A stretch of 64,000 nt of DNA from an uncultured Bdellovibrionales bacterium (GTDB lineage: Bacteria > Patescibacteriota > Minisyncoccia > Moranbacterales > GWC2-37-73), in the NCBI GenBank assembly GCA_964500125.1, contig CAZCMV010000003.1:11523-75522 (forward strand), given 5' to 3'. The position numbers and the translations under genes were made by a program. Each line of letters starts with the position of its first letter. Position 1 is the first letter of the stretch. The notes beneath the pieces were generated by a model. It was not told where the DNA came from. It ran no database searches and was given only the letters and a program-made list of their open reading frames with translations. This document shows, in pieces, positions 1 through 54,441 of this stretch.

Positions 1-2211
1 GAAGCGGTGGAGACGGTAAAGGGGCCGCTTTTGATTATTGCCGGAGCGGGATCAGGCAAGACCAAGACGTTGACACACCGCGTCGCATATTTGATTCAAA
101 ATGCCAAAGTGAGGTCGCAAAATATCTTAGCGGTTACTTTCACCAATAAAGCTGCGCAAGAAATGCGCGAACGAATCGGCAAAATCCTTGGTGTTGTTGG
201 TGATGTTAGGGGGATGCGGGGAATGTATAATTCGAAGCTGCCACTGATCGGAACATTCCATTCGATTTGTGTGCGGATTTTGCGCAGTGAAATTGAAATG
301 CTCGGTTATGCCAAGTCATTTCACATTCTGGATGATCAAGATCAGCAAGCTTTGATGAAGCGAGTGATGAAAGAATTGGAAATTGATACAACCCAGTTTC
401 ATCCCAAAGCATTTTTAGGTGCGATCAGTAATGCTAAGAATGATTTGATTGAGGCTGAGCAATTTGCCCAAGAGGCGAACGGTTATTACGAAGAACTGGT
501 TGCGAAAACTTTTGTTAAATATCAACAAGAATTGAAAGCAAGCAATGGTTTGGATTTTGACGACATTATTTTGCTGACCGTGAAGTTGTTCAAAAAATTT
601 CCGTTGGTGCTGGAAAAATATCAGCTTATTTTTCAATTCATCATGGTTGATGAATATCAAGATACGAATAAGGCGCAATATGTGCTGGTGAATTTGTTGG
701 CGAGCAAACATCGCAATTTGTGCGTCGTGGGGGATGACTGGCAGTCGATTTACAAATTTCGCGGGGCAGATATTAAAAATATTTTGGATTTCGAAAAGGA
801 TTATCCGGAAGCAAAAGTAATTCATCTGGAACAGAATTATCGTTCATCGCAGATCATATTGGATGCGGCATATGGTGTGATCTCCAAAAACATCAATCGC
901 AAAGATAAAAAATTGTGGACAGAGAAAAAAGAAGGACACTTGATTACTTCATATGAAGCGGAGGATGAAAAAGAAGAAGCGGAATTTATTGCAAGAGAAA
1001 TAATGAATGCCAAGGGCACAAAACGCTATGCTGACTATGTTGTGCTTTATCGCACTAATGCCCAGTCACGTATGGTGGAAGAAGTTTTTTTGCGCCGCTC
1101 GATTCCGTATCGCATTATCGGGGGCATCAAATTTTATCAACGCAAAGAAATCAAAGATATGGTTGCCTATTTGCGTTTGATATTCAATAATAGCGATGTT
1201 GTTTCTTTGGAACGCATCGTCAATGAACCGAAACGCAACCTTGGAAAAGCGACGCTTGATAAATGGGTGAAGATTGCAAGAGAAATGGAAATGAATCCAA
1301 TTATAATGGGATATCGGGGAGACCTGGGAAATCAGGTTGATTCAGGATTGGGAAAAGTTAAAGTCGATGCGATTAAAAAGTTTTGTGAGTTTATTGTGAG
1401 GATGGATGAAATAAGAAACAGGATATCTTTGTCTGATTTTATTCAAAAAGTTTTTGCGGAGAGTGGCTATGAAGCGATGTTATTAAAAGAGGGAACAGAA
1501 GGAGAGGTTAGATGGGAGAATGTGAGGGAGTTAATTTCAGTTGCACAAAAATATGACAGTGAAGAAGCTAATGATGTGGAGGATAAATTAGCTGCTTTTT
1601 TGGAAGAGGTTGCGTTGGCTTCGGATGTGGATAATGTGGATCAAAATCAGGATGCAGTTCACCTTATGACCATGCACAGCGCCAAGGGCTTGGAGTTCCC
1701 AACAGTTTTTATTATCGGGCTTGAAGAAGGAATTATGCCGCACTCGCGTAGCCAGCTTTCTTATGAAGATATGGAAGAAGAGAGGCGACTCATGTATGTG
1801 GGGCTCACACGTGCCAAAGAAAAAATATATTTGTTGTTTACCAGGCAGCGAACTATTTTTGGTGCAACGCAAGTGAATCCACCGTCGAGATTTTTGGATG
1901 ATATACCGAAGGAGCTAGTGGAACGATGTGAACAAGAGATGAAATACAAGATGGAAGAAACAAGAAATAAGAAACAAGAAACAAATAAATTTCAAATTTC
2001 GAATTATAAATTTTCGAACAAATCTCAGATCTCGACTCCCAAATCTCAAGTCTCAAGCAGGGCTTCTTTCCGAGATGGAGAGAAGGTGGCGCATGGGGAG
2101 TTTGGAGAAGGAATTGTGGTTTCTTCGGATGAAGAGATTGTGACTGTGGTTTTCAAAAAAGCGGGAATAAAAAGATTAAGCAAGGAATATGCAAAATTGA
2201 AGAAAATTTAA
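1..2211 (+). CDS. pcrA: ATP-dependent DNA helicase PcrA/UvrD family. 5'-partial: the reading frame is already open at nt 1.
   Basis: Walker A 'AGAGSGKTKTLTHRVAYL' and UvrD helicase motifs throughout. C-terminal 'GEKVAHGEFGEGIVVS' Tudor-like tail typical of PcrA/UvrD. Confidence 0.85.
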   Translation, partial: EAVETVKGPLLIIAGAGSGKTKTLTHRVAYLIQNAKVRSQNILAVTFTNKAAQEMRERIGKILGVVGDVRGMRGMYNSKLPLIGTFHSICVRILRSEIEMLGYAKSFHILDDQDQQALMKRVMKELEIDTTQFHPKAFLGAISNAKNDLIEAEQFAQEANGYYEELVAKTFVKYQQELKASNGLDFDDIILLTVKLFKKFPLVLEKYQLIFQFIMVDEYQDTNKAQYVLVNLLASKHRNLCVVGDDWQSIYKFRGADIKNILDFEKDYPEAKVIHLEQNYRSSQIILDAAYGVISKNINRKDKKLWTEKKEGHLITSYEAEDEKEEAEFIAREIMNAKGTKRYADYVVLYRTNAQSRMVEEVFLRRSIPYRIIGGIKFYQRKEIKDMVAYLRLIFNNSDVVSLERIVNEPKRNLGKATLDKWVKIAREMEMNPIIMGYRGDLGNQVDSGLGKVKVDAIKKFCEFIVRMDEIRNRISLSDFIQKVFAESGYEAMLLKEGTEGEVRWENVRELISVAQKYDSEEANDVEDKLAAFLEEVALASDVDNVDQNQDAVHLMTMHSAKGLEFPTVFIIGLEEGIMPHSRSQLSYEDMEEERRLMYVGLTRAKEKIYLLFTRQRTIFGATQVNPPSRFLDDIPKELVERCEQEMKYKMEETRNKKQETNKFQISNYKFSNKSQISTPKSQVSSRASFRDGEKVAHGEFGEGIVVSSDEEIVTVVFKKAGIKRLSKEYAKLKKI

Positions 2212-6896: not shown

Positions 6897-8348
6897 ATGT
6901 ATAATCAAGAAAATAATCAAAAAATAACAAATCCTATATATTTTCCCATGATCACCCCTTCAGTATTTGGAAGGGCAGATTCTGCTGATGTTAGAAAAAA
7001 AAGATGGGATATTTTTAATGCTTTGCCAGAACAAGAAAAGGATAAAATCCTTGCTCCTAATGTTGCGTTTACATTGAAAAATGTGGCTGAAAAATATGAT
7101 CTTTCCGATGAAGAGGCAATGAAAATATCAAGATTGGTGCGCGAACTTTTTTTTAGAAACATCTCTAAGGAAAATATAGCGGTTGAACTGCAAAGAAGGA
7201 TCTCAAGATTGACCAATTCCGAATTAAAAGACGTGGAAAAGATTATCATATACCAAATATTAACAGCAAATACTTCTCAAATAAAAGAAGCATCTTTTAA
7301 AACAACCAATATAATCAAATTATCTTTGGAAAATGCGCTTTCTCGATATCCAAATCTTGGTGAGCAATCAATAACAGCAAATCAGTTGCGATTACGGATT
7401 ACTCCAAATCCAGTGAAACCCTCAATCAAGAATTGGATCAGTGATTATTGCGAACAAATGGGATCGGGAAAACATGAAGCATTTGATCGTGGAAATTATC
7501 TTTTTCATAGTGAGAACACAAAAATTCTGACTGCAATCGAAAGGAAGAAACTTTCACTTGTGCTTAAATCCTTGGACGAAGGCATGTTGCTTAATGTTGA
7601 TCCGGAAAAACAAGAAGTTGTGTTTGAATTAGAGGGCAGCTCTAATATTCAAATGGAAACTTCTGTTTTGCGTCAATCAATAAATCATCTTGCGAGTCGA
7701 GGTGGGCAAATGAATAGAAATGATGAGAACATAGCAAGGCGAGAAGTTGGCAGCGGACAAAAACAAGATACGAGAAAAACAGGACCCGGAACGGGTGGTA
7801 TTGGACAGGAGGGTGGTTTCATGGATGGAATGAGAACATTGAAAGAAAAAAAAGAAGTTAAAGAAACAAAAGAAATGGAAACCTCTGCGCAAACAATATT
7901 CAGACAAAGCAATTTGCGTAATTTTTCAAATCAAAATACACGTGTTACACAACAATCTGTTGACATGACTGGAGTTAATGCAATGTCGCCAAATCAAGAA
8001 ACAAAAATAAATCAGTTTTTTGGAGAAAACTCCGTGTCTGATTTTGTCGGTAAGGGAAAAACGGAAAAATTTTCGCCGAAACCACAAGTGTCTGTTCATT
8101 CCACGGCTGTTCCGTCGAACTTTGCTGATGTTATACAAAAAAAACCAAGCAATCAAACACAAGAAAAAATAATCGAAAATGCAGCAGGAGCCGCCACGCC
8201 TGCCAGGATTGTTCCAAAATCAATGTTGTCGCAAAATGCTAATGGAGGTAGTGTAAGTTTTTCTTCGCCGCAACAATTGCCCATCGAAAAAAAACAGATG
8301 CCTTCAAAAAAATCACCTTTTAGAATTGTTCCGCATGGCGATTTGTGA
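6897..8348 (+). CDS. Hypothetical protein, 483 aa; low-complexity, Q/N/K-rich C-terminal half.
   Basis: Long ORF with no recognisable motif. Sits between the VirB6-like gene and the pilin genes. Confidence 0.5.
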   Translation: MYNQENNQKITNPIYFPMITPSVFGRADSADVRKKRWDIFNALPEQEKDKILAPNVAFTLKNVAEKYDLSDEEAMKISRLVRELFFRNISKENIAVELQRRISRLTNSELKDVEKIIIYQILTANTSQIKEASFKTTNIIKLSLENALSRYPNLGEQSITANQLRLRITPNPVKPSIKNWISDYCEQMGSGKHEAFDRGNYLFHSENTKILTAIERKKLSLVLKSLDEGMLLNVDPEKQEVVFELEGSSNIQMETSVLRQSINHLASRGGQMNRNDENIARREVGSGQKQDTRKTGPGTGGIGQEGGFMDGMRTLKEKKEVKETKEMETSAQTIFRQSNLRNFSNQNTRVTQQSVDMTGVNAMSPNQETKINQFFGENSVSDFVGKGKTEKFSPKPQVSVHSTAVPSNFADVIQKKPSNQTQEKIIENAAGAATPARIVPKSMLSQNANGGSVSFSSPQQLPIEKKQMPSKKSPFRIVPHGDL

Positions 8349-8389
8349 TGAATTGTGAATTGTAAAATATGAATTATGAATTAATCAAT
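8344..8389 (+). repeat. Heptamer-period tandem repeat (tgaattg/atgaatt units) spanning the stop of the upstream gene and the start of pilin gene 1.
   Basis: tgtgatg aattgtg aattgta aaatatg aattatg aattaat. Confidence 0.6.
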
Positions 8390-13628: not shown

Positions 13629-13665
13629 ATCGAAAATCAAAATGCAAAAATCAAAATGAGTAACT
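13627..13665 (+). repeat. Heptamer-period repeat tract (aaaatca / aaatgca units) in the tig-clpP spacer.
   Basis: aaatcg aaaatca aaatgca aaaatca aaatgag. Confidence 0.5.
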
Positions 13666-13769
13666 TCGACAAATTGAAGATGGGCAATGAAAATGTAAAA
13701 TTCGGCGTTATTTTAATTTTGAATTAATATTTTGCACGTTGAGATTTGCATTTTGTATTTATTAAGATT

Positions 13770-18099: not shown

Positions 18100-18255
18100 A
18101 TTCAAGCAACAAACATCAAGTAACAAATTCCAAACAATACTCAATAACCAAATTTTAATAATCAAATGAATATTAGAAAATTGTAATTTTGTAGTTTGTT
18201 TGGAATTAGAAAATTGATTATTGGAAATTCCTTGCGAAGCAAGGTGTTGTGGATA
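18100..18255 (+). repeat. Long heptamer-period low-complexity tract downstream of rny.
   Basis: caaattc aagcaac aaacatc aagtaac aaattcc aaacaat ... ttgtaat tttgtag tttgttt ggaatta. Confidence 0.5.
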
Positions 18256-28789: not shown

Positions 28790-28925
28790 TAAGAAAAAAT
28801 TTCGAATTTCTAATTTTGAATTTCGAATCAGTTTTGAATTGTCAATGTTTGAATGTTTCAAAATTCAACCAGTAGGATTTTATTCAAAATTTGAAATTCA
28901 TAATTTAAAATTCTATAAACTATTT
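28790..28925 (+). repeat. Heptamer-period tract (ttcgaat/tttgaat/ttcaaaa units) filling the pyk upstream region.
   Basis: ttcgaat ttctaat tttgaat ttcgaat ... tgaatgt ttcaaaa ttcaacc ... caaaatt tgaaatt cataatt taaaatt. Confidence 0.55.
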
Positions 28926-30356
28926 ATGGATAAGCGAACAAAAATTGTTGCCACATTGGGGCTTGTGTCTGATACCAAAGAAGTGCTCAAAAAAATGATT
29001 GATGCTGGGATGAATGTGGGCAGACTCAATTTTTCCCACGGTTCATATGAATGGCATGGCAACATCATCAAAGTTTTGCGTGAACTTTCTGAAGAGAGTG
29101 GTCAATCAATCGGAATCTTGGCTGATCTTCAAGGACCACGCATTAGAACAGTAGTTGAGAAAGAGATAGAGATAGAGAAAGGGGAAATGGTGCAGGTTGG
29201 CGATATATCTGTTTTGGAAAATCACAAATCACAAATCTCAAATCTCAAATCTTTCCTGCTTGATGTTCCGAATATTGTAGATGATATTGAAGTGGGGCAT
29301 GAAATCTTAATTGAGGATGGGATTATTAAAGTTGTTGTGAAGGAAAAGAGTGAAGGAATGCTTCTTTGCGAGGTTGTTGATGGGGGAACGGTGAAAAATC
29401 ACAAAGGCGTAAATATTCCTGATGCCACTTTGCACATTGATCCGGTTACGGAAAAAGATGAAAAAGATTTGGAGTTTGTACTAAAAGCAGAGGTTGATTT
29501 TGTGGCACTTTCTTTTGTTAGTGATGGTAAGGACATTGAAAATCTTCGTGACCGCATGAAGAAAATTTTGGGCAGAGAGGATAATCTACCCCAAATAATT
29601 GCCAAAATAGAACGCAAAGAAGCGATCAAGAATTTGGATGATATTATTGAACATACTGATGCGGTTATGGTAGCACGTGGTGACCTGGGAATCGAAATGG
29701 ATGGCACGAAAGTGGCAGTACTCCAAAAAGAGATAATTAAAAAATGTTTGAGCAATATGAAGCCAGTGATTGTGGCTACTCAGATGCTAAATTCTATGAT
29801 TGAAAATCCTCGCCCAACTCGCGCCGAGGTAAGTGACGTGACCAATGCCGTCATTGATCATGCTGATGCCGTGATGCTTTCAGGAGAATCTGCAAATGGT
29901 AAATACCCAGTGGAAAGTGTTGAAGCTATGGCTAATATCATTCGTAACACTGAAGAGTCTCCTTTTGATGATCTGATAAAACCACTTTCCTTGGAATGCA
30001 AATCAGACTTTGCTTGTTTGGTCAAAGGCGCCTACGAGCTTGCAAAAAACAGTACTGCTTCGGCGATTATGCTTGCCAGTGTGAGTGGCTATACTGCTCG
30101 CCTTGTGTCTCATTTTCGTCCGGAACAGCAAATGTTGGTAGTAACCAACAATATTCTTACATACAGACAGTTATCTTTAGTATGGGGAATAAAGCCTTTT
30201 ATGACCGAGGAGAAAAATTTGCTTTCTGCGATTGATTTTCTTGTCCAGGCAAGTAAAAGAGATGGACTCTTGAAAGATGGACAAAATACTGTTATTATAC
30301 TCGGCAGTGTTCCGGGAGGCGAAAGAATGCAGCTGGTGGGGGTAAAAAGCGTTTAG
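28926..30356 (+). CDS. pyk: Pyruvate kinase.
   Basis: 'MDKRTKIVATLG', 'RLNFSHGS', 'MVARGDLGIE' signatures. Start set at MDKRTK. Confidence 0.85.
   Translation: MDKRTKIVATLGLVSDTKEVLKKMIDAGMNVGRLNFSHGSYEWHGNIIKVLRELSEESGQSIGILADLQGPRIRTVVEKEIEIEKGEMVQVGDISVLENHKSQISNLKSFLLDVPNIVDDIEVGHEILIEDGIIKVVVKEKSEGMLLCEVVDGGTVKNHKGVNIPDATLHIDPVTEKDEKDLEFVLKAEVDFVALSFVSDGKDIENLRDRMKKILGREDNLPQIIAKIERKEAIKNLDDIIEHTDAVMVARGDLGIEMDGTKVAVLQKEIIKKCLSNMKPVIVATQMLNSMIENPRPTRAEVSDVTNAVIDHADAVMLSGESANGKYPVESVEAMANIIRNTEESPFDDLIKPLSLECKSDFACLVKGAYELAKNSTASAIMLASVSGYTARLVSHFRPEQQMLVVTNNILTYRQLSLVWGIKPFMTEEKNLLSAIDFLVQASKRDGLLKDGQNTVIILGSVPGGERMQLVGVKSV
29219..29253 (+). repeat. Five tandem 7-bp units (aaatcac x2, aaatctc x2, aaatctt) in frame inside pyk, encoding ...NHKSQISNLKS...
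   Basis: ggaaaatcacaaatcacaaatctcaaatctcaaatcttt. Confidence 0.7.
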
Positions 30357-30357
30357 T

Positions 30358-30438
30358 ATTTTGTATTCAGTATTCAGTATCCAGTATTATTATAGTATGG
30401 AATCCATATACATCATACTATATACTAGATACTGTTTT
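30358..30438 (+). repeat. Heptamer-period tract (ttcagta / atactat units) between pyk and tRNA-Ser.
   Basis: ttttgta ttcagta ttcagta tccagta ttattat agtatgg aatccat atacatc atactat atactag atactgt. Confidence 0.5.
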
Positions 30439-30525
30439 GGAGGAGTCGCATAGCGGTTTAGTGCACCACCTTGGAAAGGTGGCATATCCGAAAGGGTATC
30501 GGAGGTTCGAATCCTCTCTCCTCCG
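30439..30525 (+). tRNA. tRNA-Ser (anticodon GGA), class II with long variable arm.
   Basis: Acceptor GGAGGAG/CTCCTCC. Anticodon stem CCACC/GGTGG, loop TTGGAAA. Variable arm ATATCC-GAAA-GGGTAT. T-arm GGAGG-TTCGAAT-CCTCT. Confidence 0.75.
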
Positions 30526-30821
30526 CTTTAAGTTTGGTGCATAAAGTGTGCAAAAAATGCGGACATTTTTTCAAAGAAGACGAGGATGTCTGTAATTCTT
30601 GGGAAAAGAAAGGAAACCAATAACTAAAATTCTCAATAAAAAACAATAGAAATAATAAAAAAGATGAGTTTGTTAAATTTACTTATCAGAAGCGGAACAA
30701 TGAGGTTTCGCTTAAATTTTACCTTAAATATTGCTATATTGCGGAAAATGCTTCATGATGGGGATGGTTGAAATTTTCTTGTTTCAAATGAGTATTAAAG
30801 GGCAATAGCAACACGGAAATA

Positions 30822-32660
30822 ATGCGTTCAGATGTCGAAGAAATAAAATCAAGGCTTAATATTGTCGATGTTGTCGGCGAATATGTCAGATTAACTAAGG
30901 CAGGGGCAAATTGGAAAGGCCTCTGTCCTTTTCATCATGAAAAAAACCCTTCTTTTATGGTACACGAGGAAAAGCAAATTTATCATTGTTTTGGTTGTCA
31001 AAAAGGCGGTGATATCCTTTCCTTTATCATGGAAATAGAGGGTTTGGAGTTCCGTGAAGCGCTTAAAATATTGGCAGAACGGGCTGGTGTGCAGCTTAGT
31101 AATCAAGCGCCTCAGCAAAAAACAGATGACAAGAAAAAGATTCTAGAAATAATTGAATTGGCAACCAAATTCTATGAAGTTCAACTCTGGAAAGGTGTTG
31201 GCAAAGAAAATGTGATGGGTTATTTGCGTGAGCGTGGCTTAATCGAAGATACCATTCGCAATTTTCGTTTGGGTTTTGCGCCACAGGGCTGGCGTAATGT
31301 GCTTAATTTTCTGACTGAAAGAGGATATAAGGTGGAAGATATTGAAAGAGCAGGACTGATAATCAGGAAAAATCCTAAATCCGAAATCCTAAATCCTAAA
31401 CAAATTCAAAATTCAAAATTCAAAATTCAAAATTCTTTTTATGATCGTTTTCGTAATCGCATTATGTTTCCCATTTGTGATGGTATGGGCAAGGTGATTG
31501 GATATAGCGCACGTGTGGCGCCGGGAGATGATGAATCACAAGCCAAATATATCAATACTCCGGAAACGAGTGTTTATCACAAAAGCGAGGTGCTGTATGG
31601 CTTACATCTTGCCAAGCAAGCAATTAAACAAAAGAATGCTGTATTGTTGGTGGAAGGTAATATGGATGTGATCGCTTCACATCAAGCAGGTCTTAGCAAT
31701 ACGGTTGCTGTTTCGGGTACCGCGCTTACATCAAAACAGATAGATATTCTCAAAAGATATGCTAAAAACATCCAGATGCTTTTCGATATGGACAGTGCAG
31801 GAAATCAAGCGCTCAATCGTAGTGCTGATTTGGCCTTTAATAAGGATGTAGAAGTGTCTGTGGTGCGACTGGGGGAAGGAAAAGATGCAGCTGATGTGGT
31901 ACAAAAAGATGCTTCCAAACTTGTTTCGGCTGTTGAGGCAGCAATGCCGGCGATGGAATATTTTTTTCAAGCGGCTGTCTCAGAATATGATTTGCGTGAT
32001 CCACAACAAAAAAAGCAGTTTGTCCAGGATTTGGGGCAGCATGTGGCAAATATGGAAAACCAAATCGAAAAAATGCATTGGATTAAAAAAATAGCTCATG
32101 AAATAGATTCAGCGGAAGAAACAGTGTTGGAAGCGGTGTCTTCTCTTAAAGAACACAATCCCTATCGGCATGAAGAAACAAATGATGTCGTAGTTGAAGA
32201 TAATTCATTTGCTGAGCGTAGCGATTTAGTTAAAGAAAAATTAATAGGACTCATGCTTAGTGATAAGGACGCGTGGCAATGGTGCGCTGAAGAATATATT
32301 ACGGATCCGTATGTTAAAGAAGACAAATTTTTGCAAACACTTTTCAAAGAAGGTGCAAAACATGGATATGCGCTCGAACAGATGTTATTTTCGCTTGAAG
32401 ACGAGAAACTGCGGGGCAGGTTTGCTAAGCTGGCTTTCGATAGCAAATACCGTTTTGAAAGTGCAGATGCAATGGAAAATAGCAGCGAAGAAATAAAAGA
32501 ACAAATAAAGCAATATATGGCACAATTTGTCAAAGAATTGCAAAAACAGAAATTGCGTAGTATCATAAGAGATATCAAAAAAGCCGAACAGTCGGGTGAT
32601 AGAAACCTGCTCGGTGAGCTAATGAGTGAGTTTACAAAACTTTCTCAAGAATTAACTTAG
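30822..32660 (+). CDS. dnaG: DNA primase DnaG.
   Basis: Zinc ribbon 'CPFHHEKNPSFMV...YHCFGCQKGGD'. TOPRIM 'LLVEGNMDVIASHQAG', 'DMDSAGNQA'. Confidence 0.85.
   Translation: MRSDVEEIKSRLNIVDVVGEYVRLTKAGANWKGLCPFHHEKNPSFMVHEEKQIYHCFGCQKGGDILSFIMEIEGLEFREALKILAERAGVQLSNQAPQQKTDDKKKILEIIELATKFYEVQLWKGVGKENVMGYLRERGLIEDTIRNFRLGFAPQGWRNVLNFLTERGYKVEDIERAGLIIRKNPKSEILNPKQIQNSKFKIQNSFYDRFRNRIMFPICDGMGKVIGYSARVAPGDDESQAKYINTPETSVYHKSEVLYGLHLAKQAIKQKNAVLLVEGNMDVIASHQAGLSNTVAVSGTALTSKQIDILKRYAKNIQMLFDMDSAGNQALNRSADLAFNKDVEVSVVRLGEGKDAADVVQKDASKLVSAVEAAMPAMEYFFQAAVSEYDLRDPQQKKQFVQDLGQHVANMENQIEKMHWIKKIAHEIDSAEETVLEAVSSLKEHNPYRHEETNDVVVEDNSFAERSDLVKEKLIGLMLSDKDAWQWCAEEYITDPYVKEDKFLQTLFKEGAKHGYALEQMLFSLEDEKLRGRFAKLAFDSKYRFESADAMENSSEEIKEQIKQYMAQFVKELQKQKLRSIIRDIKKAEQSGDRNLLGELMSEFTKLSQELT
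31369..31428 (+). repeat. Tandem 7-bp units (aaatcct x4 then aaattca x4) in frame inside dnaG, encoding NPKSEILNPKQIQNSKFKIQNS.
   Basis: aaaaatcctaaatccgaaatcctaaatcctaaacaaattcaaaattcaaaattcaaaattc. Confidence 0.7.
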
Positions 32661-32708: not shown

Positions 32709-34160
32709 ATGAAAAAAGTGACAAAAAAGAAGGTCGCTAACAAACCGGCTACTAAGAAAGTCGCGCCGAAAAATAAGATGCAACCGAAAAAAATTGCTAA
32801 AGGTTTACGTGTTGCAAAGGCTGCTCCAAAGAAACAGATCAAAAAAAACACTAAGCTTTTAAAAAGCAAATCTAATTCTACTGCAAAATCTAAAAATCAA
32901 AACAAGAAGGTTTTTGCCAAAAAAACCAATGTTTCAAAAGTTTCAAAAATAAAAGCAAAAAAAACAGTTGTTCCAGTTAAAAATGTTCCCAAAAAAGAAA
33001 AAATGACAATCAAGAATATCAAAAAACATAAAGAAGAACATAAAGAAGAAGTTGAAGTTATTGGTACAGCCGAACTCGTTGCAGGTATTATTGAACGTGG
33101 CAAGCAGCGTGGTTTTGTTACTGAAGATGAAATAATTCATCTGATACCTGACATTGAAGAGGAAGTTACTGAGCTGGAAAATCTTTATGAAAAGTTGGAA
33201 ACTGCGGGTATTAAGATTGTGCAGTCCGACGAGATGCTTAAGATTGATACGGATAAGGAAGTGGAGGCATATGAAAAAAGCAAAAAAGATAAAAATGTAG
33301 ATGCATTTCTGGCAGATGGTATTGAAGATGGAAGCGCAGATTTGGTGCAGATGTATTTGCGTGAAATCGGACGTGTGTCTTTGCTAAGTGCTGATGAAGA
33401 AGTGCGTCTGGCTAAATCTAGTGAAAAGGGAGATTTGATTGCCAAACAGAAACTTACGGAGGCAAATTTGCGTTTAGTAGTTAGTATCGCCAAGAAATAT
33501 GTCGGTCGTTCACATAATCTGTCATTACTTGATCTGATTCAAGAGGGAAATATAGGTCTTTTTCGAGCAGTGGAAAAATTCGATTATCGTAAAGGATTTA
33601 AATTTTCAACTTATGCTACTTGGTGGATTCGTCAAGCAATCACGCGCGCCCTGGCTGATCAATCCAGAACGATTCGTATTCCGGTGCACATGGTTGAAAC
33701 GATAAATAAATATACGCAAGTGATGCGTCGTTTGGTGCAGGAACTCGGACGTGAACCTTTGCCGGAAGAAGTCGCCGCTGAGATGAATATGGAAGTGGAA
33801 AAAATTCGTCACATCCAAAAAATTTCTCAAGAGACCGTTTCTTTGGAAACCTCAGTGGGTGACAGTGATGATGACAGTGTTTTGGGCGATTTCATTGAAG
33901 ACACAGAGACGGTCATGCCTCATCAGGTGGCTTCTCGCAAGCTTCTTAAAAGCCATGTGGGACAAGTGCTTAGTGAACTCTCTCCGCGCGAACAGAAGAT
34001 TCTTAAGATTCGTTTTGGACTTGAGGACGGAGTGACTCACACATTGGAAGAAGTCGGCAAAGAATTCGGTGTTACGCGCGAGCGTATCCGTCAGATCGAA
34101 GCTAAAGCTTTAGACAAGATACGACAGCATCAGATGGTTAACAAATTGAAACATTACTAG
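32709..34160 (+). CDS. rpoD: Primary RNA polymerase sigma factor (sigma-70, RpoD), with a Lys-rich N-terminal extension.
   Basis: '[40 protein letters not shown]' (regions 2.x) and region 4 HTH. dnaG-rpoD is the conserved operon order. Confidence 0.9.
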
Positions 34161-52714: not shown

Positions 52715-53974
52715 ATGCATGATAATGACATTCAATTTGACGTGGTGGTGATTGGCGGCGGTCCAGCGGGGATGATGGCTGCTGTTTGCGCTGCCAAAAA
52801 AGGTGCGCGAGTCGCCTTGATTGAGAAAAATGATCGTCTGGGTATTAAGCTTCTGATGACGGGTAATGGGCGATGCAACTTCACACAAAATGAAAAGGAT
52901 ATCAATGAATTGGTTAAAAAATATGGCAAAAATGGCAGATTCTTGTATTCAGCATTGTCTACGTTTGGTCCCAAGAACACGATTGATTTTATGGAAAGAG
53001 CCGGCGTCAAAACGAAAGTTGAAAAAGATGGCCGCGTTTTTCCAGTCAGTGACCAAGGCAAAGATGTGCTTGGCGCGTTGGAAAAAATACTTAAGGAAAA
53101 TAACGTTACTTTTTTTCTCAAGTCCACTATTGAGGAAATCGAAGCTGAAAATGGCAAGATCCGTAAAATTATTTTGAATAAAAAAAGAGAAGTGACGGCG
53201 CATAGCTATATTTTTGCCATGGGTGGCAAATCATATCCGAGCACTGGCAGTGCAGGGCAGGGCTATGAATGGGCCAAAAAGCTGGGGCACACCATTGTCG
53301 AGCCGCAGCCTCTTTTGGTTCCAATTGAAACAAAAGAAAAATGGGTGGCTGAACTAGCTGGAATAACCGCACATAGTTGCGCCATCAGTATTTGGCAAGG
53401 TGGCAAGAAGCAAACAACTTCAGAAGGGGACATGCTTTTCACGCACCTGGGTGTGAGTGGTCCACTGGTACTTAATTTAAGTCGCAGCATAAGACCTATT
53501 TTAGCAAGCGGCGAAGTAAAGCTGAAAATAGATCTCAAGCCCTATTTATCATTTGAGCAGTTGGATGAAATCGTGCGCAAAGATTTTGAAAAAAATGCAT
53601 CCAAAAAATTAGCCAATTGTCTTGCTGATTTATTTTCTCCAAAATTACTTGAATTTTTGCTGAATTATAGTGGTGTTGATTTGGAAAAGCATGCCGCCAA
53701 AATAAGCAAGCAGGAAAGACATAAGCTCATAGAATTGTTTAAAGGCTTGGAACTTACGGTTGAAAAAATGTTCGGTTTTGAGCGCGCCATGGTTACAGGT
53801 GGAGGCATAAGCACGAAAGAAATTGATTCTAAAACCATGAATTCTAAAGTTATCCAAAATCTTTTTTTTGCCGGGGAAATCATCGATGTTGATGGTCCGA
53901 CCGGTGGCTATAATTTGCAATTGTGTTGGACAACAGGGCATTTAGCAGGTTCAAGCACAGCCAAACAACAATAA
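52715..53974 (+). CDS. FAD-dependent oxidoreductase of the HI0933/BaiN (aminoacetone-oxidase-like) family.
   Basis: 'DVVVIGGGPAGMMAAVCAAKKGARVALIEKN...GNGRCNFTQ'. Start set at MHDNDI. Confidence 0.75.
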   Translation: MHDNDIQFDVVVIGGGPAGMMAAVCAAKKGARVALIEKNDRLGIKLLMTGNGRCNFTQNEKDINELVKKYGKNGRFLYSALSTFGPKNTIDFMERAGVKTKVEKDGRVFPVSDQGKDVLGALEKILKENNVTFFLKSTIEEIEAENGKIRKIILNKKREVTAHSYIFAMGGKSYPSTGSAGQGYEWAKKLGHTIVEPQPLLVPIETKEKWVAELAGITAHSCAISIWQGGKKQTTSEGDMLFTHLGVSGPLVLNLSRSIRPILASGEVKLKIDLKPYLSFEQLDEIVRKDFEKNASKKLANCLADLFSPKLLEFLLNYSGVDLEKHAAKISKQERHKLIELFKGLELTVEKMFGFERAMVTGGGISTKEIDSKTMNSKVIQNLFFAGEIIDVDGPTGGYNLQLCWTTGHLAGSSTAKQQ

Positions 53975-53990
53975 CCAAAATGCTAAATTG

Positions 53991-54140
53991 AAGATACAAG
54001 AAACAAGATACGAAATACAAACAAAACTCAATATTCAAATTTAAAATATTCAAATCGCCCTGGTTTGGTTTTTTGTTTTTTGGAATTTGTAATTTGTTTG
54101 TATCTTGGTTCTCGTATCTTGTCCCTTGTGCCCCGTATCT
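53991..54140. repeat. Two blocks of heptamer-period repeats in inverted orientation (gatacaa/gaaacaa/gatacga... versus ...gtatctt/ggttctc/gtatctt) flanking an AT-rich core. Potential long imperfect hairpin.
   Basis: The left block is approximately the reverse complement of the right block; both are 7-bp periodic. Confidence 0.5.
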
Positions 54141-54441
54141 TTTAAGAGTTCCCGCGATTTGCTATAAAAAACAGTGCAAATTGTAATAAATTTACACAAA
54201 ATATTTCTGCAAAAAGCCTTATACTTATTCAGATAAAAACAATACTGATTGTGCTTTTGCTGTTTACGATTGTGGGAGGCTATTTATATCGTTCTTATCA
54301 CGACTTGTCTAAGATGATAAATTCAAGTAGCAATTTGCAACAAACAACAGTCAACTTACAACCGATAATCCGCAACAAGCAGTAAATAATTTACAACAAT
54401 CAACGGGTGATTCACGAATACAAAGTCCGATTGAAAATGCA

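Follow-up and report, generated by a model that had tools for sequence, protein, structure and literature searches.

According to the survey of Mrazek, Guo & Shah (2007), as relayed in PMC4679880, heptanucleotides are the most abundant class of long simple sequence repeats (SSRs) in many prokaryotes; polymerase slippage is proposed as their origin, and the hosts highlighted are Burkholderia, Actinobacteria, Cyanobacteria and Xanthomonas. A unit length that three does not divide is reportedly disfavoured in coding DNA. Here we describe two adjacent heptamer arrays that lie in frame within dnaG, the gene of the bacterial DNA primase, in a 64,000-nucleotide stretch of contig CAZCMV010000003.1 (assembly GCA_964500125.1, positions 11,523 to 75,522; hereafter the window) from a bacterium that GTDB places in the Moranbacterales (Patescibacteriota), i.e., in the candidate phyla radiation (CPR). 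The dnaG pair is the strongest example of the heptamer arrays of this window, others of which lie in the pyruvate kinase gene (pyk), in a uvrD-like helicase gene and between genes. We consider it likely, with a probability of about 0.7, that these are heptanucleotide SSR arrays which arose and have been remodelled at the DNA level and which are kept only where a loop of the protein tolerates them.

The arrays share several traits with the long SSRs of that survey, as far as these are summarised in PMC4679880, i.e., head-to-tail 7-nt units, a dominant period of seven, about four to five units per array, a proposed origin by slippage and a location mostly outside genes or at gene ends. Unlike the hosts highlighted there, however, ours is a small-genome, low-GC CPR bacterium, and its units are many and A-rich with no dominant one, with in-frame arrays in dnaG, pyk and the uvrD-like gene. 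The TAACTGA repeats of marine Beggiatoaceae, Cyanobacteria and Bacteroidetes occur in 2-6 copies at many sites, their route of spread being unexplained (MacGregor 2015, PMC4679880), and the minority found within open reading frames (ORFs) is read in the stop-free orientation and falls at the protein periphery or in a variable surface loop, as in a beta-prime-like protein (PMC4679880). Heptamer arrays at many sites, in-frame copies in a variable loop and occasional overlap with stop codons are common to both, but TAACTGA is one heptamer, placed mostly just upstream of starts and with a suggested role in translational regulation (PMC4679880), whereas the arrays of the window use many units, do not cluster at start codons and include intergenic inverted pairs downstream of genes. 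The GGGNATC repeats of Xanthomonas and Nostoc lie on the sense strand, prefer about four units and are found at most 50 nt from a stop codon or overlapping it (Rehm 2015, PMC4692102), with the STRR heptamers of cyanobacteria (Calothrix PCC 7601) cited alongside. The heptamer unit, the count of about four and the position at stop codons all recur here. However, those repeats are G-rich and form G-quadruplexes, a property invoked to account for their tendency towards four units (PMC4692102), whereas our arrays are A/T-rich, hold almost no G and still comprise four to five units, so that a preference for about four units does not in general need quadruplex formation.

In the tRNA-Leu intron of Nostoc, heptamer repeats form the P6b hairpin, which differs in length with the number of copies and with further elements inserted in it (PMC3488679). 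Its degenerate heptamers, paired with a complementary array, are matched by the intergenic hairpins of the window and by the dnaG inserts of two relatives (loci L082 and L094), but P6b is part of a group I intron, whereas the dnaG arrays of the window lie in a protein-coding loop, are not complementary to each other and are unfolded. The contingency SSRs of Haemophilus influenzae include hepta- and tetranucleotide repeats (PMC2651432). As in these, a unit within an ORF that is not a multiple of three shifts the frame when one unit is gained or lost, but contingency loci are dispensable surface or restriction-modification genes with ON and OFF states, whereas dnaG is essential and its homologues are all in frame. 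Rickettsia palindromic elements, an observation ascribed to Ogata et al. 2000, reportedly sit in frame within protein genes; they too are said to place repeat DNA in surface loops of housekeeping proteins, with filled and unfilled orthologues coexisting, but as dispersed palindromes of 100-150 bp with a conserved sequence, whereas the insert described here is tandem, non-palindromic and without a second copy in the window. The arrays belong to a known kind of repeat and are not a new category. What is new lies in the detail, namely the CPR host, the many A/T-rich units, the core housekeeping genes and a single turn of DnaG remodelled clade-wide; our literature search found no paper on heptamer tandem repeats in Patescibacteria, nor on simple sequence repeats in the candidate phyla radiation.

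Two heptamer arrays within dnaG

The gene corresponds to ORF 30822..32660 of the forward strand (612 aa, from the ORF list) in a window with a G+C content of 39%. Its product has the domain order of a bacterial DnaG primase (CHC2 zinc ribbon, DNAG_N, TOPRIM and DnaB-binding, with Pfam E-values of 8.5e-38, 1.2e-36, 6.4e-20 and 4.7e-08, respectively), and all four families exceed their curated cut-offs. The nearest named homologues are DNA primases of Candidatus Moranbacteria, and primases of known structure (PDB 2au3, 5guj, 4e2k and 1dd9) match with E = 6e-57 to 9e-41. In bacteria dnaG is normally essential and single-copy; the 64-kb window holds one, in the usual dnaG-rpoD arrangement.

The original prediction of heptamer repeats in frame inside dnaG is borne out by both Tandem Repeats Finder and direct reading, which delimit two arrays, A and B (Table 1). 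Array A reads AAATCCT AAATCCG AAATCCT AAATCCT, with AAATCCG as the lone variant, and array B consists of four AAATTCA units and a terminal AAATTC; together they encode the peptide NPKSEILNPKQIQNSKFKIQNS (residues 184-205, 31371-31436, 66 nt). The segment had been given as 60 nt at 31369-31428, of which the start and the description stand, whereas the end is 7-8 nt short and cuts the last unit of array B. Its placement just upstream of a conserved motif was right, as the strand FYDRFRNRIMFPI follows at once, and residues Y207, D208, R209, F210, R211, R213, F216 and P217 of DnaG are invariant among 32 homologues. The claim that two unit types stand back-to-back holds for their adjacency; rather than two families inserted separately, they probably represent a single array region that evolves locally. 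The unit of array B reads through three frames and encodes KFKIQNS, a 7-aa peptide repeat present only 1.6 times. Because the perfect 7-nt period of this 34-nt array crosses all three frames, the periodicity is a property of the DNA and not of the protein.

Arrays were scanned for with a 21-nt sliding window and a minimum of 18 matches at lag p, for periods 3-15, with 30 second-order Markov shuffles as the null. Six arrays of period 7 are present in the window, while each of the other periods gives 0-3 and the shuffles give none at any period; at a looser threshold period 7 yields eight arrays and the other periods 0-4. Related Moranbacteria loci carry some 22 period-7 arrays per Mb, by our own count from the array list and with dnaG-site arrays excluded, and loci from other taxa 7.5 per Mb (9 arrays in 1.196 Mb). 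The dnaG segment is a tandem heptanucleotide long SSR, longer than expected by chance, and there is a specific excess of heptamer arrays in this genome, both within and between genes, as read from the 64 kb on which genome-wide statements rest.

The way in which the arrays avoid stop codons points to how they are kept. A perfect AAATCCT array would carry a TAA stop in one of the three frames, and the only mismatch of array A falls at codon 188, where in-silico restoration of the repeat's T gives a stop. The AAATTCA unit is stop-free in all three frames, and array B is perfect. Adding or removing one AAATTCA unit of array B in silico leads to a stop at residue 210 or 223, upstream of TOPRIM, and adding or removing three preserves the dnaG ORF. 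All of the 120 DnaG homologues are full length (covering 96-100% of the query), and no frameshifted dnaG allele was found among them. Given that the sole mismatch removes the TAA, that steps of three units keep the frame and that the homologues are full length, we infer a DNA-level process that is blind to the reading frame and is followed by purifying selection; the pattern of stops and frame does not fit selection for a particular peptide.

A hairpin turn of variable length in DnaG

The arrays fall between GLIIRK and FYDRFRNRIMFPI, and alignment with orthologues, which the original prediction had proposed as a check, finds the segment not conserved in distant DnaGs. The enzyme of B. subtilis (5guj) has a 17-residue gap exactly at the array position and that of Aquifex (2au3) a 9-residue gap, the Pfam DNAG_N profile has 128 positions vs 149 residues spanned in the window's DnaG, and in other phyla the loop measures 6-11 aa in 39 of the 48 DnaGs with locatable anchoring motifs. 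In most bacteria this turn comprises 7-8 aa. In an AlphaFold2 model built on 32 homologues, short strands at residues 180-182 and 206-208 bracket the insert, and the predicted local distance difference test score (pLDDT) averages 61 over residues 181-190 and 48 over 191-200 vs ca. 91-92 over the well-ordered blocks 171-180 and 211-220. As modelled, the insert lengthens a beta-hairpin turn in the N-terminal subdomain of the primase catalytic core by about 17 residues, hydrophilic in composition (N, P, K, S, E, I, L, Q, F) and probably disordered. Most likely, this extension is a neutral passenger that would play no role in priming.

Among the 120 nearest DnaGs, loop lengths were obtained for 119, the remaining one lacking a usable anchor, and range from 8 to 37 aa. 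A base state of exactly 8 aa, of the KKENGxGY type and resembling the REDGSGY turn of B. subtilis, is found in 37 of the 120; loops of 8-10 aa occur in 51 and loops of 13-37 aa in 68. Within the query's own subgroup (68-72% identity) the lengths are 25, 28, 15, 15, 33 and 9 aa, and in a neighbour-joining tree from which the loop was masked out, lineages with long loops are scattered among those with short ones. The lengths peak at 8, 15 and 22 aa and also at 17-18 aa, which, in sequences that are not phylogenetically independent, is at most suggestive of quantisation in 7-aa steps; at the protein level, two homologue loops (P0058 with 13 aa and P0019 with 20 aa) differ by exactly 7 aa. The DnaGs of L082 and L114 are 88-89% identical on both flanks of a loop that cannot be aligned between them, and the loop therefore turns over much faster than the gene.

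The DNA of about 11 insert-bearing relatives was read, and in these the long loops, too, consist of heptamer arrays, with units of other kinds (Table 1). In L082 and L094 the insert comprises an array and its inverted counterpart, which together fold into one long hairpin (z = -3.07 and -3.35, respectively). In L094/L095 (2858-3010) the loop reaches 45 aa and consists of period-8 arrays of the CGAATTCA type with terminal inverted repeats CGATTCGAATCT and AGATTCGAATCG, and the entire insert folds into a single hairpin within the ORF. GC-rich stem-loops also occur in frame at this position, i.e., CCTCTCTC-AAA-GGGAGAGG plus TGTCGCG-AGTA-CGCGACA in L093 (8712-8830) and CCCCTCTCCTT-ATC-AAGGAGAGGGG in L102 (9491-9590), encoding peptides of the PSPSPYQGEGG type. 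Since L093 and L102 carry such stem-loops there, the DnaG loop also accepts unrelated kinds of insert. Their CCTCTCC...GGAGAGG motif had only two matches across the loci searched, with no sign of a dispersed family in these data.

Heptamer arrays elsewhere in the window

Table 1 Heptamer arrays and associated features of the window, and the units found in the DnaG loops of relatives
Feature	Positions in the window	Strand	Composition and remarks
UvrD/PcrA-like helicase arrays	1955..2057	+	AAGAAAC x4, AAATTTC x4, AAATCTC-like x3-5; in frame (Tandem Repeats Finder and sequence)
Inverted pair, AAATTC-type	28797..28913	+	upstream of pyk; arms 25 nt, 88% complementary; RNAfold z = -3.75
pyk array	29219..29252	+	AAATCAC x2, AAATCTC x3; in frame, where pyruvate kinase varies in length
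Inverted heptamer-array pair	30352..30437	+	AGTATTC x4.9 then complement-like array; arms 78-92% complementary; RNAfold z = -2.36
dnaG array A	31370..31400	+	(AAATCCT) x4.4, 91% matches, score 55 (Tandem Repeats Finder)
Only mismatch of array A	31383	+	G where the repeat predicts T; codon 188 is GAA (Glu), not TAA
Junction AAAC	31398..31401	+	4-nt partial unit; repeat register shifted between arrays A and B (direct reading)
dnaG array B	31402..31435	+	(AAATTCA) x4.9, 100% matches, score 68 (Tandem Repeats Finder)
Conserved strand FYDRFRNRIMFPI	31437..31475	+	within the N-terminal subdomain of the catalytic core of the primase; bounds the variable loop on its 3' side
AT-rich hairpin	53957..54141	+	AAGATAC-type heptamers and complement; 49-nt arms; overlaps upstream stop codon; z = -5.17 (53985-54125); nhmmer E = 8e-45
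DnaG loop of L081			AATTACA x4
DnaG loop of L093			AATTACA x4
DnaG loop of L085			AAATTCC x5
DnaG loop of L084			AAATCCC / AAATTCC / AAAATCC, then AACTACA x5
DnaG loop of L082			AACAGAC x4, then GTCAGTT x3
DnaG loop of L100			CAAAGAA / CAATGAA x4, then ATTGGTC x2-3
DnaG loop of L105			AAATTCA x4
DnaG loop of L106			AAGATAC x4
DnaG loop of L104			AAATACA x2, then AAGATAC x2

The original prediction regarded the dnaG repeats as the same phenomenon as a repeat in pyk, and we agree, as the pyk array also occupies a length-variable segment and relatives carry other heptamers at that site: AATTACA x4 in L082 and L114, AACAAAC/AACAGAC in L113, and AAAATCC/AAATTTC/AAATCCA in L087. The arrays of the uvrD-like gene encode approximately residues 650-684, a linker between the end of Pfam UvrD_C (613) and the start of a Tudor domain (691). 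The three intragenic sites are a loop, a length-variable segment and an inter-domain linker. As regards the suggestion that the dnaG units might recur between genes, AAATTCA-like dimers do (16 in the window vs 5.8 expected, matching only at other short heptamer arrays), but AAATCCT dimers are confined to dnaG in the window.

The intergenic arrays begin on or beside the stop codon that ends the preceding gene (8348, 13627, 30355 and 53970). The pair downstream of pyk extends from the pyk stop codon to 1 nt before a tRNA-Ser(GGA) gene, and that upstream of pyk has a unit related to dnaG array B (AAATTCA-dimer matches with at most two mismatches). An inverted pair composed of array, spacer and complementary array is also seen at 13633-13760. 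The hairpin at 53957-54140 can be aligned with L104 2411-2618 and L013 5442-5608 (nhmmer E = 1e-41 to 1e-45), although the three occupy different gene contexts, and a weaker copy lies at 18100-18231 of the window. Arms of this family are made of degenerate heptamers (AATAACC, AAGATAC, AAACAAT and others) and their complements, with two to 11 AAGATAC units and RNAfold z between -2.2 and -8.2, and its members could be terminator-like elements, repetitive extragenic palindromic (REP)-like elements or a mobile hairpin. At Rfam gathering thresholds the entire window yields four tRNAs only, the arrays and hairpins belonging to no family.

No such structure is predicted for the coding arrays of the window. 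The dnaG region 31300-31500 has no inverted pair and an RNAfold z of +0.71, and the pyk array has no partner and no predicted structure (z = +0.15); a structural RNA or DNA role for the two arrays was rejected on these values, and the dnaG segment also lacks the hairpin potential of an element like the Rickettsia palindromes. Decayed hairpin arms were likewise rejected as a source of the dnaG arrays, as the reverse complements AGGATTT and TGAATTT match the other array in no register. Each of these complements would bring in-frame stops into dnaG, which may plausibly be why the window's gene lacks an inverted arm, and in the L082 insert both arms are stop-free.

Some observations concern neighbouring genes. 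The listed TTG start of pyk at 28839 is probably spurious, since pyruvate kinase homology begins at the ATG at 28929 (MDKRTKIVATLG); the 90 nt upstream of this ATG belong to the heptamer-array hairpin region. The ORF at 6897-8348 (483 aa) has no Pfam match, and an ATGAATT/GTGAATT array at 8348-8383 overlaps its stop codon. Only split fragments of the tRNA-Ser(GGA) gene (window 30439-30526) are found in the pyk-dnaG spacers of L114 (8910-10000) and L082 (8990-10000), where they flank a different tRNA-Ser(GGA) gene and ca. 600 additional nucleotides that contain small Cys-rich ORFs, in what looks like an insertion at a tRNA gene. The RpoD homologue has a very lysine-rich N-terminal extension of ca. 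120 aa (32709-33080) before region 1.1, containing period-9 and period-12 repeats (32931-32948 and 33025-33050).

Origin of the arrays and competing explanations

We postulate that replication slippage on a local A-rich seed generates such arrays regardless of the reading frame, and that unit mutations would then spread along part of an array to give back-to-back sub-arrays, adjacent sub-arrays that differ by one base being AAATCAC/AAATCTC in pyk and AAATACA/AAGATAC in the dnaG of L104. In some relatives template switching may act as well, as their inverted pairs suggest. Persistence would depend on a permissive hairpin turn, an added length that is a multiple of three and the lack of a stop in the frame that is read; in an essential gene, a length change would be viable only if it spanned three units (21 nt, 7 aa) or were compensated. 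The short-loop DNA of L087, AAAAAAGAAAATTCAGGA, already contains an AAAATTC seed, and the insert of L105 resembles a direct expansion of this stretch with the same Asn-Ser-Gly codons at its end, so the dnaG arrays may have expanded in place rather than been inserted. The first array of L082 may be a later inverted copy, given that L114 appears to carry only the counterpart of the second.

Several results weigh against an origin by local slippage. No indels separate the members of five locus pairs with 99.5-100% identity, whose arrays are identical, no length variants of the dnaG locus were found in metagenome contigs when both flanks with a gap of 45-75 nt were sought, and the window's exact DnaG forms a cluster of one member on one contig. 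The absence of length change in strain pairs of at least 99.5% identity may be explained by the survival of three-unit or compensated changes only. More troublesome is that units recur across sites and genomes beyond a composition-aware null, which simple local slippage does not predict: a hand tally of at least nine coincident pairs among ca. 24 arrays corresponds to about 30 effective unit classes, compared with null values of 88 (A-rich units only) and 827 (all stop-free heptamers, weighted by their frequency in coding DNA). Some 34 nearly identical nucleotides (AATCCY followed by AATTACA x4) are common to L081 and L093, loci with DnaGs that have only 72% and 48% identity, respectively, to that of the window. 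Lastly, nothing examined accounts for the exact period of 7 nt.

Such recurrence would be expected if the arrays were copies of dispersed, selfish heptamer elements spread by ectopic gene conversion, template switching or transposition, which survive in dnaG only as a stop-free, A-rich arm. Such elements would resemble the Rickettsia palindromes, the cyanobacterial STRR or the TAACTGA repeats of Beggiatoa. We regard this as unlikely. The same units do turn up in different settings: AATTACA in the dnaG of L081 and L093 and the pyk of L082 and L114, AACAGAC in the dnaG of L082 and the pyk of L113, AAATCTC and AAATTTC in both the uvrD-like gene and pyk, and AAGATAC between genes in the window, L104 (11 copies) and L013 as well as in the dnaG of L104 and L106. 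The hairpin family that aligns between three genomes in different contexts, the inverted pairs in the dnaG inserts of L082 and L094, the interspersion of insert-bearing and short-loop lineages and the excess of AAATTCA-like dimers all accord with dispersal. However, the dnaG segment of the window has neither inverted repeat nor predicted structure, and no shared termini, target-site duplications, transposase or integrase are evident in the stretches read, where no dedicated search was made. Mostly there is one unit per site, an AAATCCT dimer is found nowhere else in the window (with up to two mismatches), the seed is already present in short-loop DNA, and unit sharing is partly explicable by orthologous ancestry or by the constraint to stop-free, hydrophilic units. 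A template-repeat copy of the dnaG segment, as a diversity-generating retroelement would have, is absent from the 64-kb window (at most two mismatches). In viral contigs, giant-virus bins included, the AAGATAC trimer had 6 matches in 2.9 million, a result uninformative on a vector.

A broader form of this idea, likewise improbable in our judgement, is that of a heptamer-element system spanning the Moranbacteria/Parcubacteria clade, with a small shared repertoire of units that may include AAGATAC, AATTACA, AAATTCA/AAATTCC, AACAGAC, AAATCTC and others, and with the dnaG arrays as its coding-compatible arm rather than a product of local slippage. If this were true, the units would be copied by template switching, ectopic conversion or a sequence-specific enzyme, forming long hairpins downstream of genes and repeatedly colonising loops of DnaG, pyruvate kinase and UvrD. 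Whichever holds, the sharing of units between sites is the most noteworthy unexplained part of these observations.

Selection of the loop extension at the level of protein or expression, be it as a clade-specific interaction surface, a translational pause or a frameshift contingency switch, is very unlikely. A peptide xNSYK[LP]EA[SN] is kept in at least 10 homologues, an extended loop persists at this position in 68 of the 120 relatives, and a one-unit change would switch dnaG off, which is the formal logic of phase variation. However, close relatives have almost nothing in common in the peptide, length and composition of the loop, the repeat shows no departure at synonymous positions and a 7-nt period is meaningless for a protein, and in the AlphaFold2 model the segment is of low confidence and adopts no defined fold. 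A cell in the OFF state should not survive; a phase-variation locus was rejected, as dnaG is essential and the 120 homologues include no OFF allele. That the arrays are an artefact of sequencing or of a metagenome-assembled contig can practically be dismissed: the exact protein comes from a single contig and short tandem repeats may be mis-assembled, but the ORF is intact and in frame, the arrays (31 and 34 nt) are shorter than typical short reads, many relatives have heptamer arrays at this codon position in independent assemblies from NCBI, JGI, ENA and Logan, and identical arrays occur in separate samples (L082/L083 and L085/L086).

Heptanucleotide arrays shaped at the DNA level and filtered by the tolerance of a protein loop thus remain the reading that we prefer. 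On this reading, 7-nt repeats that arise without regard to frame can persist even in an essential replication gene if they lie in a permissive hairpin turn. Array segments of this sort inflate apparent divergence and break alignments of CPR marker genes, and they could serve as strain markers. Across the Moranbacteria, the DnaG turn would represent a natural record of how such arrays rise, homogenise and decay.

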